Numbered from the stretch's first letter, positions 1-37,214 are shown. The stretch is DNA of 37,264 nt from a virus (UHGV-0087839), one strand, 5' to 3'. A program made the numbers and translations. Notes: a model not told the origin generated them from the sequence alone.

Positions 1-18
1 TTACCTTGGCAACCGATT

Positions 19-40
19 GACGGGGGATTGCTCCCCCGTC
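19..40 (-). terminator. Stem-loop immediately 3' of the hok-like ORF (GACGGGGGA-TTGC-TCCCCCGTC); no clear U-tract
   Basis: Perfect 9-bp inverted repeat with 4-nt loop read directly from the sequence, 10 nt downstream of the ORF stop on the minus strand. Confidence 0.3.
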
Positions 41-49
41 GCGGTTTCC

Positions 50-190
50 TTACTGCTTACACTGTAAGAACGCCGCAAACTCCGCTCCCCAGAAGCTCAT
101 CCGTATTTCACACAGCGAACCGTGCAACATCCAGATGATGAGGATTGCCGTCACGCAGAACGTGATGGCCGTAAGCGATTTTTGCGACAT
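50..190 (-). CDS. hok: Hok/Gef-family type I toxin (46 aa), absent from the supplied ORF track
   Basis: Reverse-strand translation MSQKSLTAITFCVTAILIIWMLHGSLCEIRMSFWGAEFAAFLQCKQ: N-terminal hydrophobic helix followed by the SLCEIR...E.AAF motif typical of Hok/Gef peptides; stop is followed by a stem-loop. Confidence 0.6.
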   Translation of the reverse strand: MSQKSLTAITFCVTAILIIWMLHGSLCEIRMSFWGAEFAAFLQCKQ

Positions 191-320
191 AGCACTTGCT
201 CCTTTTCCGGAGAGGCGCTAACCTTTCACTTGTCAAGGTAATGCGGTTAGGGCCTCGGTTAAACAGAGATGTTTTCCGGGGCCTTTCCACATCTGGCCTT
301 CGGGTATTCCCTCCGACCAT
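108..320 (-). CDS. Possible mok-like overlapping reading frame upstream of and overlapping hok
   Basis: 70-codon ORF in a different frame, starting upstream of hok and ending inside it, matching hok/mok architecture; no sequence-level support beyond position. Confidence 0.3.
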   Translation of the reverse strand: MVGGNTRRPDVERPRKTSLFNRGPNRITLTSERLAPLRKRSKCYVAKIAYGHHVLRDGNPHHLDVARFAV

Positions 321-380
321 CAGCCGAAAGGCACCCGCGCGTAATCTATCGCTTTTTTGTTACTCCGGCAATTCTGCCTG

Positions 381-641
381 TTAATTCTGAGGTAAAGGCA
401 AGCTCATCTGATTGTTTCCCCTGTGTGAAGCTGGCAGCTCATGCCACGGGATACCTTCTGAAGAGTGAACGCCGGAGGTGTGTTTCGATGTGAATTTATG
501 GAAAGCTTCCAGTGTTGAGAAGCATACGCCGCATTCCAGATTGTTACACTGGTAATACTTTTGCCGTACGGTGTTTGAATCATTTTCCGGGCGACTAGTG
601 CGGATACGGGCAGATGCGCCACAAAGCGGACAACGGAACAT
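381..641 (-). CDS. ogr: Ogr/Delta-family zinc-finger late transcription activator
   Basis: Translation starts MFRCPLCGASARIRTSR...YYQCNNLECGVCF, i.e. CPLC...C..C zinc-finger pattern closely resembling P2 Ogr; GGGAGG ribosome-binding site upstream of the ATG. Confidence 0.85.
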   Translation of the reverse strand: MFRCPLCGASARIRTSRPENDSNTVRQKYYQCNNLECGVCFSTLEAFHKFTSKHTSGVHSSEGIPWHELPASHRGNNQMSLPLPQN

Positions 642-953: not shown

Positions 954-1511
954 TCAGATTAGGGCTATCTGCTGATTATTTAGCTTCTCCAATCTTTCAG
1001 ACAGTTTTATCTTATCTTCAACTTTTTCCAGCGATGATGCTGACATAAAGCTAATCAGCTTATCAATATCTTTAGGTTCTTTGATAAGAACAAACTCCCT
1101 TGTCTTATTAATGAAAACAGCTGAGTTTTTCTTTCTTGATAGCAACTCAATGACGTTGCTCAGTGTTCCCGGACTTTTTGTATCCCAAACCATAAGGCCA
1201 CAGTCTGCTGTTTCTGCCATCTTTATATCTTTGGCTGTGTAGAAATCTCGAGTTCCGGGTCGGAAGTTTGATTTAACGAGTTTCACGGGCCATGCACCAA
1301 AATTGTTTCGTGGCTTGGCATCACTAGTGAACACAGTGGTTGCGCTATAACCCAATTGTTTTAGTTCCAGCTGTACGGAAGAGTCAACGCCAGAGGCGTC
1401 ACCGACGATAACATTAAAGTTCTTGTCAACAATCTTCTTTAAGCGCTCAACGATAAGCGGGTCGAGCTTTTTAATGGTTATCGAGCCAGCAACGAAAACT
1501 GTCGTTGTCAT
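954..1511 (-). CDS. Rossmann-fold protein with SLOG/DprA/LOG-like signature (tentative); second gene of accessory cassette
   Basis: 185-aa ORF; N-terminal VFVAGS...VIVGDASGVD glycine-rich strand-loop pattern resembling DprA/YpsA/LOG (SLOG) nucleotide-binding domains; AT-rich relative to phage backbone; GGAG ribosome-binding site 6 nt upstream of the ATG; start 2 nt after the stop of the upstream gene. Confidence 0.6.
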   Translation of the reverse strand: MTTTVFVAGSITIKKLDPLIVERLKKIVDKNFNVIVGDASGVDSSVQLELKQLGYSATTVFTSDAKPRNNFGAWPVKLVKSNFRPGTRDFYTAKDIKMAETADCGLMVWDTKSPGTLSNVIELLSRKKNSAVFINKTREFVLIKEPKDIDKLISFMSASSLEKVEDKIKLSERLEKLNNQQIALI

Positions 1512-1513
1512 GG

Positions 1514-2101
1514 TTATCTCCAGGTTAGTGCTGCTACATAAATTTTATTGATTTTATTATAACCGCGTAACGCTGTAACTGCAGCTTCCATGGATGCTCC
1601 TGTATGGAAGAGATCATCAACGATGAGGGCATTAAAAGGGCCATCCCCGACAATTTGGTTTTGATAAGAAAAAGCGTCAGCAACAGCAGCTTCTTTCTCT
1701 TCTTTAGTGTTCAGATTTTTCAAAGACACGCCACCAGGTGCTTTGATTAATAACTCATTGAAGCTAAACATGTTATTTCCCATTTTTGATGCCAGAGCGT
1801 CAGTAATTGCTGTCACGGGTTGAATTTTTCGAACATTTGAAGCTGCCATTGGGATGATTAATTGTATGTTTTGAAAAAGAGGCACAGCATTAACTAATAG
1901 GCACTGGGCAAGCGCATCAACTTGGTCCATGTCATTTTGATATTTTAACTGGTATACGGCTTCTCCAACCTCCGTGCGATCGTTTTGAAACATAGGCTTG
2001 CCATACTCGTTATCACCTAAATAAGTACTCTTAATCAAATGCTTATCCATCGCGTAACCTAAATCCCAGTTACCCGTAATTGGCTTGATGTTTACTTTCA
2101 C
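1514..2101 (-). CDS. Phosphoribosyltransferase (PRTase, ComF-like) domain protein; first gene of accessory cassette
   Basis: 195-aa ORF with C-terminal PRPP-binding signature ALIVDDLFHTGASM (hydrophobic-DD-hydrophobic-x-TGxT); GTG start preceded by AAGGAAAG; AT-rich. Confidence 0.75.
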   Translation of the reverse strand: MKVNIKPITGNWDLGYAMDKHLIKSTYLGDNEYGKPMFQNDRTEVGEAVYQLKYQNDMDQVDALAQCLLVNAVPLFQNIQLIIPMAASNVRKIQPVTAITDALASKMGNNMFSFNELLIKAPGGVSLKNLNTKEEKEAAVADAFSYQNQIVGDGPFNALIVDDLFHTGASMEAAVTALRGYNKINKIYVAALTWR

Positions 2102-28449: not shown

Positions 28450-28761
28450 TTATTCAGGAAATAACGCCCGGATATTTCCGGCCATCTGACTGGTTATCTG
28501 TGCGGTTGATACTGGCTGTGACGCGGGGCGTTCTGTCTTGGTTTGTGTCACTGATAACACCTCATCATCAGCCCATGCAGCCAGTCGGTAAGCCTCTGCC
28601 GGATTCATTTTCAGAAGTGCCAGCCCGGCCAGAAAAGCCACGCGTTGGCCGCTTTTGCGGGCTTCTGGTGTAAGGCTGTCCAGCCAGGCGCATGCTTCTC
28701 CTTCGTTCTTGACGGCGGTGGGCTTCAGATAGAAACTTATCCGTCTGGTTGGAGTCGTCAT
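28450..28761 (-). CDS. parR: ParR-like partition adaptor (ribbon-helix-helix)
   Basis: Translation from the internal ATG (MTTPTRRISFYLKP...AWLDSLTPEARK...AFLAGLAL) resembles plasmid R1 ParR; AAGGAG ribosome-binding site; follows parM by 4 nt. Confidence 0.7.
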   Translation of the reverse strand: MTTPTRRISFYLKPTAVKNEGEACAWLDSLTPEARKSGQRVAFLAGLALLKMNPAEAYRLAAWADDEVLSVTQTKTERPASQPVSTAQITSQMAGNIRALFPE

Positions 28762-28765
28762 TGGT

Positions 28766-29725
28766 TTACTCCTTGTCCATTGCGTACAGCCCATTAACCA
28801 GAGCAAACTGTGGCACCCCGTCCGCGATGAAAGTCGCATTAACTCCGCAGGCTTCGCGGATAGCGGGTGCCACAATCTCCGCCCCTCCACCGACAACCAT
28901 CACCCGCCCGTAACCCGAAAAAACCGCCAGCGCGCGGATCACGCGTTGTTTCAGTGTTTCTTCCTTTTCACGAATAACCGCCATCAGGCTGGCGTAATGC
29001 GCGTCATTGTGGATGTGCTGGCGCAGCCAGGCTTCATCATGGCGATGTTCGATAATGGTATTGGCGATGTGATGACTGGTGCGCATACCGTTAGTGGCCA
29101 TCACCGACAGTACGGCATCGGCCATCAGAGAAACGCCTACGTGTGGATCGCAAAACACCTGGCTGATACCTGCCAGTTGCCCCTGAACCTTTGCCACATC
29201 CAGCGTGGTTCCGCCCAAATCCACAATCAGCAGGGATTCAAACGGACTCATGTCAGCCAGTGCCTTAAAGCCAGCCGGAATGGATTCAGGCATAACCCGC
29301 ACGTTACGGATAGTGAATGCCTCACCGTTCTGGTACTCCACCGGGCGCATAACGTTCGCTTTTTTGCGGTTGATGTTGGCCATGTCCGGCTGGGCGTTAG
29401 TGTCGAAATATTCGCTCAGTGGCAGGGTGACAACCACATCCACTTCCTGTGGCGTGATGCCTGATTTGACCAGCGCGTGATGAATGGCAATGACATTCAC
29501 ATCGCTGTACTGGTATTGCGTGTCGGTCGTCTGGACAAAGCGATCGCTGACCGGATCAAAACCATAGCGCACGCCATCAAGCATGTAGTTCGCAGGCTGC
29601 GAGCCACCGAACGGCGCAGACCATTCCGACTTGAAGCTGTTCGGGCTGATGGCGTTGCGGCGTTCGCCGTTTTCAGTCCATGCCAGCTTGATGTTGGTGG
29701 AGCCGTCGTCGATACAAATTTTCAT
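28766..29725 (-). CDS. parM: ParM/StbA actin-like segregation ATPase
   Basis: 319 aa; strong collinear resemblance to R1 ParM (IDDGSTNIKL, ISPNSF, QYSDVNV.A.HHAL, ERKKAN, TI..VKVMPESIPAG, SLLI.DLGGTTLD, GVSL, SGY..VMV.GGGAE). Confidence 0.85.
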   Translation of the reverse strand: MKICIDDGSTNIKLAWTENGERRNAISPNSFKSEWSAPFGGSQPANYMLDGVRYGFDPVSDRFVQTTDTQYQYSDVNVIAIHHALVKSGITPQEVDVVVTLPLSEYFDTNAQPDMANINRKKANVMRPVEYQNGEAFTIRNVRVMPESIPAGFKALADMSPFESLLIVDLGGTTLDVAKVQGQLAGISQVFCDPHVGVSLMADAVLSVMATNGMRTSHHIANTIIEHRHDEAWLRQHIHNDAHYASLMAVIREKEETLKQRVIRALAVFSGYGRVMVVGGGAEIVAPAIREACGVNATFIADGVPQFALVNGLYAMDKE

Positions 29726-35833: not shown

Positions 35834-36808
35834 ATGAGCATAAAATCAATTCCGGGAGGGTATCTTCTTGACATGCGCCCGGAGGGGCGTAAAGGCAAAC
35901 GCATTCGCAAAAAATTTAAAACGAAATCGGATGCAGTTTTATATGAGCGGTGGGTGCTGGCGCAACAGCATAACAATGAGTGGAAAGGAAACTCCATTGA
36001 TCGCCGCCCGCTGTCAGTGCTTATTGACTTGTGGTGGAAATACCACGGTCAGCTAATGAAGTCAGGGCATAACACGCGCCTTAAATTGCTGCGCTTGAGT
36101 GAGGCAATGGATGACCCGTGTGTGCATAAACTTAATACAACGATGCTCACCGAGCTACGTGTGTCCAGGATAGAGCAGGGGATACAGCCCAGCACCATTA
36201 ATCGAGAGATTGGGGCGTTAAGCGCGATGTTTACCGCACTCATCTCATCCGGCCATTTTCTTAACGATAACCCCGTTCAAGGCCTTAAAGGAATGAAGGT
36301 TAACGAGCGCGAAATGGGATATCTGAGTAAGTCTGAATGTGTTCAGTTGCTGGATGCACTGGCTGAAAATCCCGATGAACGGCTGGCTGTCGAAATCCTT
36401 CTGTCGACCGGGGCGCGATGGGGCGAGGTAGCGGCACTGGAGCAGCGCCGTGTTCTTCATTGTCGAATCACTTTTTCAAAAACGAAGAACAGCAAAAACC
36501 GTACCGTTCCTATTTCTGAAAGCCTGTTTGAAAAGATCAAAAAACGGGGCGGGAAACTGGTGTTTCCGACGCTGGATTATCCATTAGTTCGCGATGTCAT
36601 CAAAACGGTCGCACCTGATGTTCCTGACGGCCAGGCTGTTCATGCGCTGCGCCACACCTTCGCCAGTCATTTCATGATGAACGGCGGCAATATTCTGACG
36701 CTCCAGAAAATTCTGGGGCACGCAAAGATTCAGACAACGATGATTTATGCCCATCTTGCGCCGGATTACTTGCAGGATGCGGTGAGATTTAATCCTATTG
36801 CTGGGTAA
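35834..36808 (+). CDS. int: Tyrosine integrase (P2 Int-like)
   Basis: 324 aa from ATG at 35834; C-terminal HxLRHT...Y catalytic region (HALRHTFASHF...MIYAHL). Confidence 0.9.
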   Translation: MSIKSIPGGYLLDMRPEGRKGKRIRKKFKTKSDAVLYERWVLAQQHNNEWKGNSIDRRPLSVLIDLWWKYHGQLMKSGHNTRLKLLRLSEAMDDPCVHKLNTTMLTELRVSRIEQGIQPSTINREIGALSAMFTALISSGHFLNDNPVQGLKGMKVNEREMGYLSKSECVQLLDALAENPDERLAVEILLSTGARWGEVAALEQRRVLHCRITFSKTKNSKNRTVPISESLFEKIKKRGGKLVFPTLDYPLVRDVIKTVAPDVPDGQAVHALRHTFASHFMMNGGNILTLQKILGHAKIQTTMIYAHLAPDYLQDAVRFNPIAG

Positions 36809-36818
36809 GGAGGATGTT

Positions 36819-37214
36819 GTGGAAAAAACAGTTAATAGCGATTTGCATCTAGGTCAGTACTGGAGAATAGACATTGTATGCGATCCAGAACTTCGAGATG
36901 AGGTTGAGCAATATTTTTCTCTACACGATGTTGGTTTTAGCAAAATTGAAGTTTTTTCCGTCGAAAATCCATATAAACTTGCTCTGTTCTTTGATTTCGC
37001 GAAGAAGGGTGTGGAGGTTGCAAAAGCCATTATGGGACTCTTAGACCGAAATGATATTGAAATAACGATGTATCGTGCTACGGACAGTAGCCCGCAGTCT
37101 GTAAAAAGCATCAAATTGCGTAAGTCTGAAGACGTAGAGAAATGTAAAGATTTGCTTAGTACGTGTGTCGCAATTGGCGTTCAACGAAATAAGGAAAAAG
37201 AGGGGAGCGAATGA
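36819..37214 (+). CDS. Hypothetical protein immediately downstream of int (AT-rich cargo)
   Basis: 131-aa ORF from a GTG preceded by AAGGAGG; its stop overlaps the ATG of a following ORF. Confidence 0.45.
   Translation: MEKTVNSDLHLGQYWRIDIVCDPELRDEVEQYFSLHDVGFSKIEVFSVENPYKLALFFDFAKKGVEVAKAIMGLLDRNDIEITMYRATDSSPQSVKSIKLRKSEDVEKCKDLLSTCVAIGVQRNKEKEGSE

Follow-up and report, generated by a model that had tools for sequence, protein, structure and literature searches.

Described hok systems and their relation to the locus

The hok/sok (parB) locus of plasmid R1 and the hokW-sokW locus of Sp5/933W are the described systems to which the module reported here is best compared. In R1, translation of mok up to the hok Shine-Dalgarno (SD) sequence is mandatory for Hok translation, and a stem at the 3' end protects the truncated hok mRNA (PMC9841398). 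As for prophage Sp5, sokW has been shown to be the antitoxin; after mitomycin C treatment sokW vanishes and HokW appears, and deletion of hokW-sokW halved phage release (Takada et al., 2021, PMC8621323). More generally, hok genes are reported to be enriched in prophages, in a study that explicitly left Mok unanalysed (bioRxiv 10.1101/2025.08.07.668861).

We examined a hok locus at the left end of a 37,264-nt stretch of viral DNA (UHGV-0087839; the whole stretch is referred to below as the window), and we found that it is very probably a hok/sok-type type I toxin-antitoxin module with all its parts, which a P88-like (Xuanwuvirus, P2-family) prophage carries as accessory cargo. Its DNA can be aligned with both R1 hok/sok and 933W hokW/sokW from the mRNA 5' end through the fbi element. 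The locus has in common with R1 the overall layout, the tac/fbi closure, the tac/ucb hairpin, the target hairpin with its GAGG arm, the 3' stem-loop and the placement of a predicted antisense promoter over the hok SD (TTGC-C, 17 nt, TA-CCT), while the two toxins share a transmembrane (TM) helix and the LCE...E motif. In contrast, R1 Hok is 52 aa long as opposed to 46 aa here (28% identity), R1 possesses mok, which is not conserved at our locus, and R1 is a plasmid whereas the present locus belongs to a prophage. In turn, hokW-sokW is also phage-borne, with an antisense -10 hexamer (TAACCT) and spacing identical to those of the promoter predicted here, yet HokW is a HokC/D-like protein of 51 aa with 28% identity to the 46-aa Hok, and its gene is located elsewhere in the phage and preceded by an ATG at -57 (mokW).

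A 46-aa hok positioned beside lom in Stx phages, e.g., Shigella phage 75/02 Stx and Escherichia phage Lyz12581Vzw, falls into one subfamily with our gene, having 82% DNA identity over window positions 3-357, the same protein length and equal 5' and 3' ends. These copies differ in being carried by lambdoid phages, downstream of lom, and in their recognition loop and leader length. The 'MokW-like' label and the 82% match to Stx phages might suggest that our locus is hokW-sokW itself; this identification was rejected, as hokW lies elsewhere according to both the primers of Takada et al. and the annotation of 933W, its 51-aa product being only 28% identical. We observed that Stx-converting phages carry two unrelated hok loci, partly in different phages (L008 2548-2688 and L010 872-1027), namely the studied hokW (51 aa) and the 46-aa hok just downstream of lom, and that databases call both 'MokW-like'. 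The closest characterised toxin is HokA of E. coli K-12 (43% identity, common WM..SLCE and AAFL.CK motifs), whose leader is truncated in K-12 by IS150.

The toxin gene

The 46-codon ORF that the preliminary description had designated a Hok/Gef toxin translates exactly as MSQKSLTAITFCVTAILIIWMLHGSLCEIRMSFWGAEFAAFLQCKQ, and profile searches bore this assignment out. The Pfam family HOK_GEF (PF01848) matches residues 7-44 with 29.9 bits against a gathering cut-off of 22 (E 4.1e-7), and PHROG 251 ('MokW-like host killing') matches the peptide with an E value of 1.3e-22; together with the Rfam leader match described below, the Hok signal is far above chance. The best NCBIfam match is the HokA equivalog NF007290; since it reaches 34 bits and the equivalog cut-off is 89, the peptide should not be taken for a HokA orthologue.

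The family hallmarks noted earlier, i.e., an N-terminal TM helix and the SLCE motif, were likewise recovered. Hydropathy indicates one hydrophobic helix at about residues 6-22, and alignment with seven sequences (HokA-E, Hok of R1 and HokW) revealed that all residues invariant among the seven are kept in the peptide (C12, T14, L26, E28, E37), as is C27, which among them HokB alone lacks. The six conserved positions of the Hok family logo, C16, T18, L30, C31, E32 and E41 (bioRxiv 10.1101/2025.08.07.668861), are thereby all accounted for. Identity amounts to 43% with HokA and to 22-28% with the other aligned Hoks. One comparison of the hok codons gave six synonymous and no non-synonymous changes. 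PADLOC returned no match for Hok, and a search for a second copy of the module within the window found none. Judged by these sequence features, the ORF is a genuine member of the Hok/Gef family of type I toxins, presumably toxic as its relatives are.

Genomic context and origin of the module

The neighbor of hok on the inner side is ogr (381..641, minus strand; Pfam Ogr_Delta, E 5e-14), so the gene indeed lies between ogr and the window edge, a position that had left two origins, prophage cargo or flanking host DNA. For the flank outside the window we used strain 19AR1321 (99.97% identity over 6.7 kb) and ETEC1746, in which the prophage is complete. We determined that the prophage is inserted at the ihfA terminator, between ihfA and btuC, and that comparison with K-12 defines a 25-nt att core, GGCCGCTCTGCGGCCTTTTTTCTTT, which is the ihfA terminator itself and is repeated at both prophage ends (an exact search with a 30-nt core found a single copy only, the repeat being 25 nt). 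The left core lies about 190 nt outward of the hok locus, and the window is wholly inside the prophage, starting 212 nt inside the left core and stopping 57 nt before the right one. The empty site of K-12 consists of a 100-nt ihfA-btuC spacer with no hok. Because the att core flanks the locus and the empty site is devoid of it, and with the module also present in phage genome records, hok is phage cargo, located between ogr and the attP arm. That it is instead host DNA adjoining the prophage might be read from its being the last gene before the window edge, and from the many prophage predictions that stop at the hok stop codon; against the att core repeated beyond the locus, a K-12 spacer of merely 100 nt and the copies in phage genomes, the chance of this is negligible.

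A candidate att core overlapping fbi, suggested by homology to P88_4B11 that stops at L001 5977, was rejected, as this break is a mosaic junction and the true core lies about 190 nt outward. Downstream of the locus, at least six unrelated sequences are found among different phages, and homology between flanking contexts always ends a few bases past GGCACCC (the fbi element); thus, the mobile unit ends where the functional RNA ends. In L023, L025, L029 and about 45 other IMG/VR loci, the predicted prophage contigs end 3 nt past the hok stop codon, so automated boundaries drop the hok 3' UTR, fbi and the terminator, as is nearly the case for our window. Strain 19AR1321 is the genome nearest to the window at its left end. 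Its prophage (L006, 1-18700) is truncated, with no early region or integrase, and stops after the portal gene; it retains the ogr-hok end and a copy of the att core.

Other accessory genes occur in the same prophage. At 28450..29725 (minus strand) we found a ParM of 319 aa typical of R1-type partition (StbA_N, E 2e-82; ParM_N, E 6e-69) together with ParR/StbB (Plasmid_stab_B, E 2e-23). With hok/sok at its end, this integrative P2-family phage therefore has counterparts of both loci that stabilise R1, parMRC and hok/sok. One complete P88-like genome has been deposited as a 34,461-bp circular 'plasmid' (L110; NZ_CP148288.1, 1-34461) comprising hok, ogr, tail and head genes, parM/parR, a replication gene, cox and int; the circle may represent an episome or just an excision product. 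Other P88-like copies are located inside large plasmids of 142-272 kb (H104-H119). Between ogr and tail gene D, positions 954..2101 (minus strand) hold a two-gene cargo, whose first product (195 aa, 'ComF family') is matched in PADLOC by PsyrT (E 1e-7) and ShosT (E 2e-3) and whose second (185 aa) has no Pfam match; by these similarities the two genes resemble a defence pair of the Shosta/PsyrTA type. Pfam gave no match for a 138-aa ORF (36798..37214, plus strand) that separates the integrase gene from the right att core; in P2-like phages this position has been reported to be a minor cargo/defence hotspot (PMC13586616).

The predicted hok mRNA and its alternative structures

The extent first given for the locus, 19..330, proved too small, for the module runs from the promoter at 343-371 to elements situated 1-72 nt left of base 1 of the window (Table 1).

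Table 1. Features of the hok/sok-type module; positions refer to the window unless given as nt left of base 1.
Feature	Position	Strand	Remarks
Predicted hok promoter	343..371	minus	-35 TTGCCG (366-371), 17-nt spacer, -10 TAGATT (343-348); read from sequence
hok mRNA 5' end (G336) and tac element GGGUGCCUUUCGGC	323..336	minus	RF01794 alignment; folds; compensatory changes
70-codon 'mok-like' ORF	108..320	minus	other frame than hok; present in this lineage only
ucb-like box	278..290 (mRNA nt 47-59)	minus	folds; compensatory changes
Sok-target hairpin	212..256 (mRNA nt 81-125)	minus	5' arm with invariant GAGG; loop nt 93-113 is the recognition site
hok Shine-Dalgarno AAGGAG	199..204	minus	8 nt upstream of ATG
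hok CDS	50..190	minus	46 aa; single N-terminal TM helix; C-terminal SLCE...AEFAAF...C motif
Conserved 3' stem-loop of hok mRNA	18..41	minus	10-bp G+C-rich hairpin just past the stop codon
3' UTR running off the window	1..17	minus	fbi and terminator lie left of base 1
fbi element GUCGAUAAGGCACCC	1-15 nt left of base 1 (L001 5999-5985)	minus	read from 19AR1321
Rho-independent terminator	37-64 nt left of base 1 (L001 5963-5936)	minus	U tract to about 72 nt
Sok-like promoter	196..224	plus	-35 TTGCTC (196-201), 17-nt spacer, -10 TAACCT (219-224); homology
Predicted Sok-like antisense RNA, about 55 nt	about 231-286	plus	ends predicted

The predicted hok promoter starts 10 nt past the ogr stop codon (381-383), with no terminator between them, and Salmonella copies possess a TAGAAT -10 hexamer at an equal distance from GGGTGCC. 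A consensus promoter scanner detected neither this promoter nor the Sok-like one, both being poor sigma-70 matches; given this weakness, the hok and sok transcripts and their ends are to be read as predictions. The Rfam model RF01794 ('sok', sok/CssrC), the single one with a significant match, aligns with the leader over its full length on the hok strand, from 336 to 177, with an E value of 2e-9 and a score of 48.4, below the gathering threshold of 59; a scan of the whole window at gathering thresholds found nothing. This model is in effect one of the hok leader, and the mRNA 5' end was placed at G336 because model position 1 aligns there. An SdsR/RyeB match at 1048-1134 (E 0.88) was dismissed as due to chance.

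Structure prediction, which had been proposed as a check for fold-back elements, recovered both states known from R1. The full-length RNA of 352 nt (-160.6 kcal/mol, z -7.7) is closed by a helix of nt 1-15 with the final 16 nt (GUCGA-U-AAGGCACCC), and across homologues this tac/fbi closure is paired in 97.4% of cells, with compensatory changes at four pairs. The same fold places the hok SD, spacer and start codon (nt 135-147) in a helix with nt 117-128; here the 3' arm of the target hairpin, GGUUAGCGCCUC, doubles as an anti-SD for hok. Upon truncation to the 18-41 stem-loop, the 5' end instead refolds with nt 47-59 (tac/ucb), and nt 81-92 (GAGGCCCUAACC) join nt 114-125 in the target hairpin. 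Accordingly, tac has two alternative partners, fbi at the 3' end and ucb, while the ucb-like box pairs with the GAGG arm in the full-length mRNA and with tac in the truncated one. The tac/ucb helix is paired in 95.4% of cells, with four compensated pairs, and the target hairpin in 98.8%, with one-sided changes only. The predicted gain in accessibility on truncation is modest (SD from 0.33 to 0.40, spacer from 0.32 to 0.51), the hok start codon staying partly paired, and accessibility of the ribosome-binding site (RBS) drops again once the Sok-complementary stretch is blocked.

When the two structures are projected onto 31 homologues, pairing amounts to 97.1% for the full-length one, with ten doubly changed pairs, and to 97.8% for the truncated one, with nine, against 33-57% in slid controls, over which both are favoured in advance since they were derived from the window sequence itself. 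At pair 54-86, 25 sequences have GC and six have AU, and the tac/ucb pairs 10-51 and 11-50 are compensated in eight. Moreover, tac positions 10 and 11 covary with both their fbi and their ucb partners, which is the signature of two mutually exclusive helices. These compensatory changes represent few independent events, because they mostly separate the E. coli-phage clade from the Salmonella clade.

The strong hairpin noted past the stop codon is present, not as a terminator on this strand but as the conserved 3' stem-loop of the processed hok mRNA, with compensatory changes in five of nine pairs and 99.6% of cells paired; by analogy with the R1 stem, it would be the expected end-point of 3' trimming. 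The terminator proper is strong and starts 21 nt past fbi, and R1 is alike in this respect. Its symmetric hairpin is scored as a terminator in either direction and may also shield the end of the prophage from transcription coming in from ihfA. As for the hok SD, nearly every homologue retains the GGAG core, in some cases displaced by 1 nt, and one S. diarizonae copy reads ACGAG.

The mok-like reading frame

The preliminary description drew attention to a 70-codon ORF comparable to mok. Such an ORF does exist, starting upstream of hok and ending inside it, but it is not a conserved mok. It has no match in Pfam, NCBIfam or PHROG, and since ORFs of 62, 74, 72 and 86 codons fill other frames of the same 400 bases, its length is not above chance. 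In 23 of 54 unique leader variants, including P88, P88_4B11, both Stx-phage copies and most Salmonella copies, no ORF beginning with ATG, GTG or TTG reaches the hok SD in any frame, whereas an upstream-ORF scan of the positive controls, an R1-type plasmid and 933W, found the ATG at -57 in both. Close relatives with an identical toxin carry stop codons, frame-shifting indels or no start in the 70-codon frame; the distance from ATG 320 to hok differs by non-multiples of three in 16 of 41 sequences, and the variable leader sites are spread over the codon positions as 31/28/24, with no third-position bias. The ATG at 320 lacks an SD, is only 16 nt from the 5' end and falls inside the tac region, and the position of the R1/933W mok ATG reads AAC here. 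Thus, neither an overlapping mok of the R1 kind nor a coding signature was found, and to judge from the variants compared, a mok-like ORF is not a conserved element of the 46-aa hok subfamily.

The reading that the 70-codon ORF is nevertheless a true mok, whose translation from ATG 320 makes the hok start site accessible in the manner of R1, draws on the existence of the ORF, on the 31 of 54 variants in which some upstream ORF reads through the hok SD, and on the constant frame relative to hok of such ORFs in E. coli variants. Set against the missing ORFs, the frame-breaking indels, the uniform codon-position variation, the unfavorable setting of ATG 320, the AAC codon and the behavior of the controls, it is unlikely. 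Since no mok is conserved and mok is mandatory in R1, it follows that the subfamily either initiates directly at its own SD or that many copies are silent. We favor direct initiation, which would be gated by the anti-SD arm.

The second option, that we are dealing with an inactive relic, comparable to the hok loci of E. coli K-12, that hitch-hikes on the phage and never yields toxin, would agree with the lack of a conserved mok-like ORF in view of the R1 requirement (PMC9841398) and with the partly paired start codon of the predicted truncated structure. However, about 1550 E. coli genomes have an uninterrupted ORF, and so do Salmonella, Citrobacter and Klebsiella; pairing in each of two mutually exclusive structures is maintained through compensatory changes; conservation extends to the SD core, the two promoters and the boundaries of the module; and the one codon comparison shows synonymous changes only. 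These observations make a relic decidedly improbable.

The putative antisense gene and its recognition loop

A Sok-like antisense RNA had been expected on the plus strand at about 190..330, and a candidate gene was indeed found inside this interval, at 196-286. Its promoter was located by homology, the layout being equal to those of sokW of 933W (TTGCCT-17-TAACCT, the annotated RNA starting 7 nt past the hexamer) and R1 sok (TTGCGC-17-TATCCT), though not by the consensus scanner. The hexamers, their spacing and the terminator hairpin are conserved across homologues (one Salmonella copy has TATCCT), while the match to the consensus promoter is weak. The predicted RNA, from 231/232 to about 286, starts with an unpaired 5' tail, complementary to the target loop, followed by a hairpin at 249-285 and a short U tract, and folds with -26.4 kcal/mol (z -3.4); this placement agrees with the annotated SokW ends, which map onto about 238 and 286 of the window.

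We found that the Sok-recognition loop (mRNA nt 93-113, window 224..244) is hypervariable. Among 81 loci encoding an identical Hok peptide, its per-site diversity is 0.184, compared with 0.015 for the coding region and 0.008-0.067 for other leader segments, i.e., about 3-20 times that of the other module segments and 12 times that of the coding region; as the loci were chosen for an identical protein, the fair contrast is with the other non-coding segments. Nine loop alleles occur among these 81 loci, e.g., GCATTACCTTGACAAGTGAAA and GTCTACCCTAAGCAAGTGATA. This pattern would fit a diversification of antisense specificity. On a tentative view, possible but on balance doubtful, the subfamily works altogether without mok: the 3' arm of the target hairpin (nt 114-128) would act as the anti-SD, the tac/fbi switch would free the RBS and Sok would sequester it again, while the loop would diversify into orthogonal alleles, so that competing P2-like prophages could not neutralise each other's toxin.

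Distribution and annotation

The 345-nt module, adjoining ogr, is present in 1548 of 5426 complete E. coli genomes, i.e., in more than a quarter of them, and strain STEC409 is identical to the window over positions 1-345 (100%). P88-like phages (genus Xuanwuvirus, Peduoviridae) carry it with 95-97% identity, and protein relatives with 59-98% identity are found in Shigella, Salmonella, E. albertii, Citrobacter and Klebsiella oxytoca. A contig scan of genomes retrieved seven loci only, some labelled Planococcaceae, Vagococcus or Xanthomonas, for which contamination is suspected.

The gene had been described as missed by the ORF track of the window, yet it is not a new one: the protein is WP_000078916.1, all listed RefSeq records of the module are annotated as 'Hok/Gef family protein', and phage records name the gene 'MokW-like host killing'. 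The 'MokW-like' label that RefSeq and PHROG attach to the 46-aa hok is a family label only. The module is thus an ordinary representative of a known kind of system that is already annotated.

In Salmonella enterica contigs (L103 2501-3987, L104-L107), the 46-aa hok subfamily forms tandem arrays of two or three complete copies, adjoining DUF4875 and DUF1131 genes; a transposase gene (rve family) splits one of these arrays. Another Salmonella copy (L099) is situated at the end of a prophage tail-fibre region, beside fieF/pfkA.

Proposed mechanism and biological role

By homology with R1 hok/sok, the following course of events can be proposed. The weak promoter past ogr would give rise to a stable hok mRNA of about 352 nt to fbi and about 400 nt to the terminator. 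In its full-length form, the 5' tac would pair with the 3' fbi, and the RBS and start codon would be helical with nt 117-128 and the coding region, so that no toxin would be made. Slow 3' trimming to the 18-41 stem-loop would strip fbi, whereupon tac would capture the ucb box, the GAGG arm and nt 114-125 would form the Sok-target hairpin, and the hok RBS would be freed. The Sok-like RNA, short and presumably unstable, would pair through its 5' tail with the hairpin loop and neutralise the processed mRNA by RNase III cleavage and/or renewed sequestration of the RBS. Should Sok no longer be transcribed, because the element is lost or host transcription is shut off, the mRNA pool would be translated, and the 46-aa Hok would insert in the inner membrane and kill the cell.

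As for its role, we slightly favor that of an addiction (anti-curing) module maintaining the phage genome, since the prophage possesses R1-type parM and parR/stbB and P88-like elements are found on plasmids, one of them as the 34,461-bp circle. Exclusion of other phages and help with lysis after induction are possible alternatives. R1 hok/sok has been reported to exclude phage T4.

It has also to be considered that the module speeds host lysis and phage release after induction rather than maintaining the prophage. The findings on hokW-sokW in Sp5 (Takada et al., 2021, PMC8621323) point in this direction, P88 itself was obtained by induction (PMC5285337), and, with no terminator separating ogr from hok, ogr transcription could read into the locus. 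Yet HokW is a different Hok, 28% identical and encoded at a different locus, and the prophage-borne parM/parR as well as the P88-like genome found as a 34.5-kb circular plasmid accord with maintenance, so that we regard a lysis function as rather unlikely.

The analysis settles that the module is phage cargo, and the putative antisense gene and every RNA element are now placed for the 46-aa hok subfamily, whose fbi and terminator are routinely cut off by prophage and window boundaries. If regulation without mok and the diversification of the loop both hold true, the subfamily would lend itself, as a simple variant provided by nature, to studying the control of Hok translation where a leader peptide is missing, and it could also reveal what keeps co-resident addiction modules from cross-talk.
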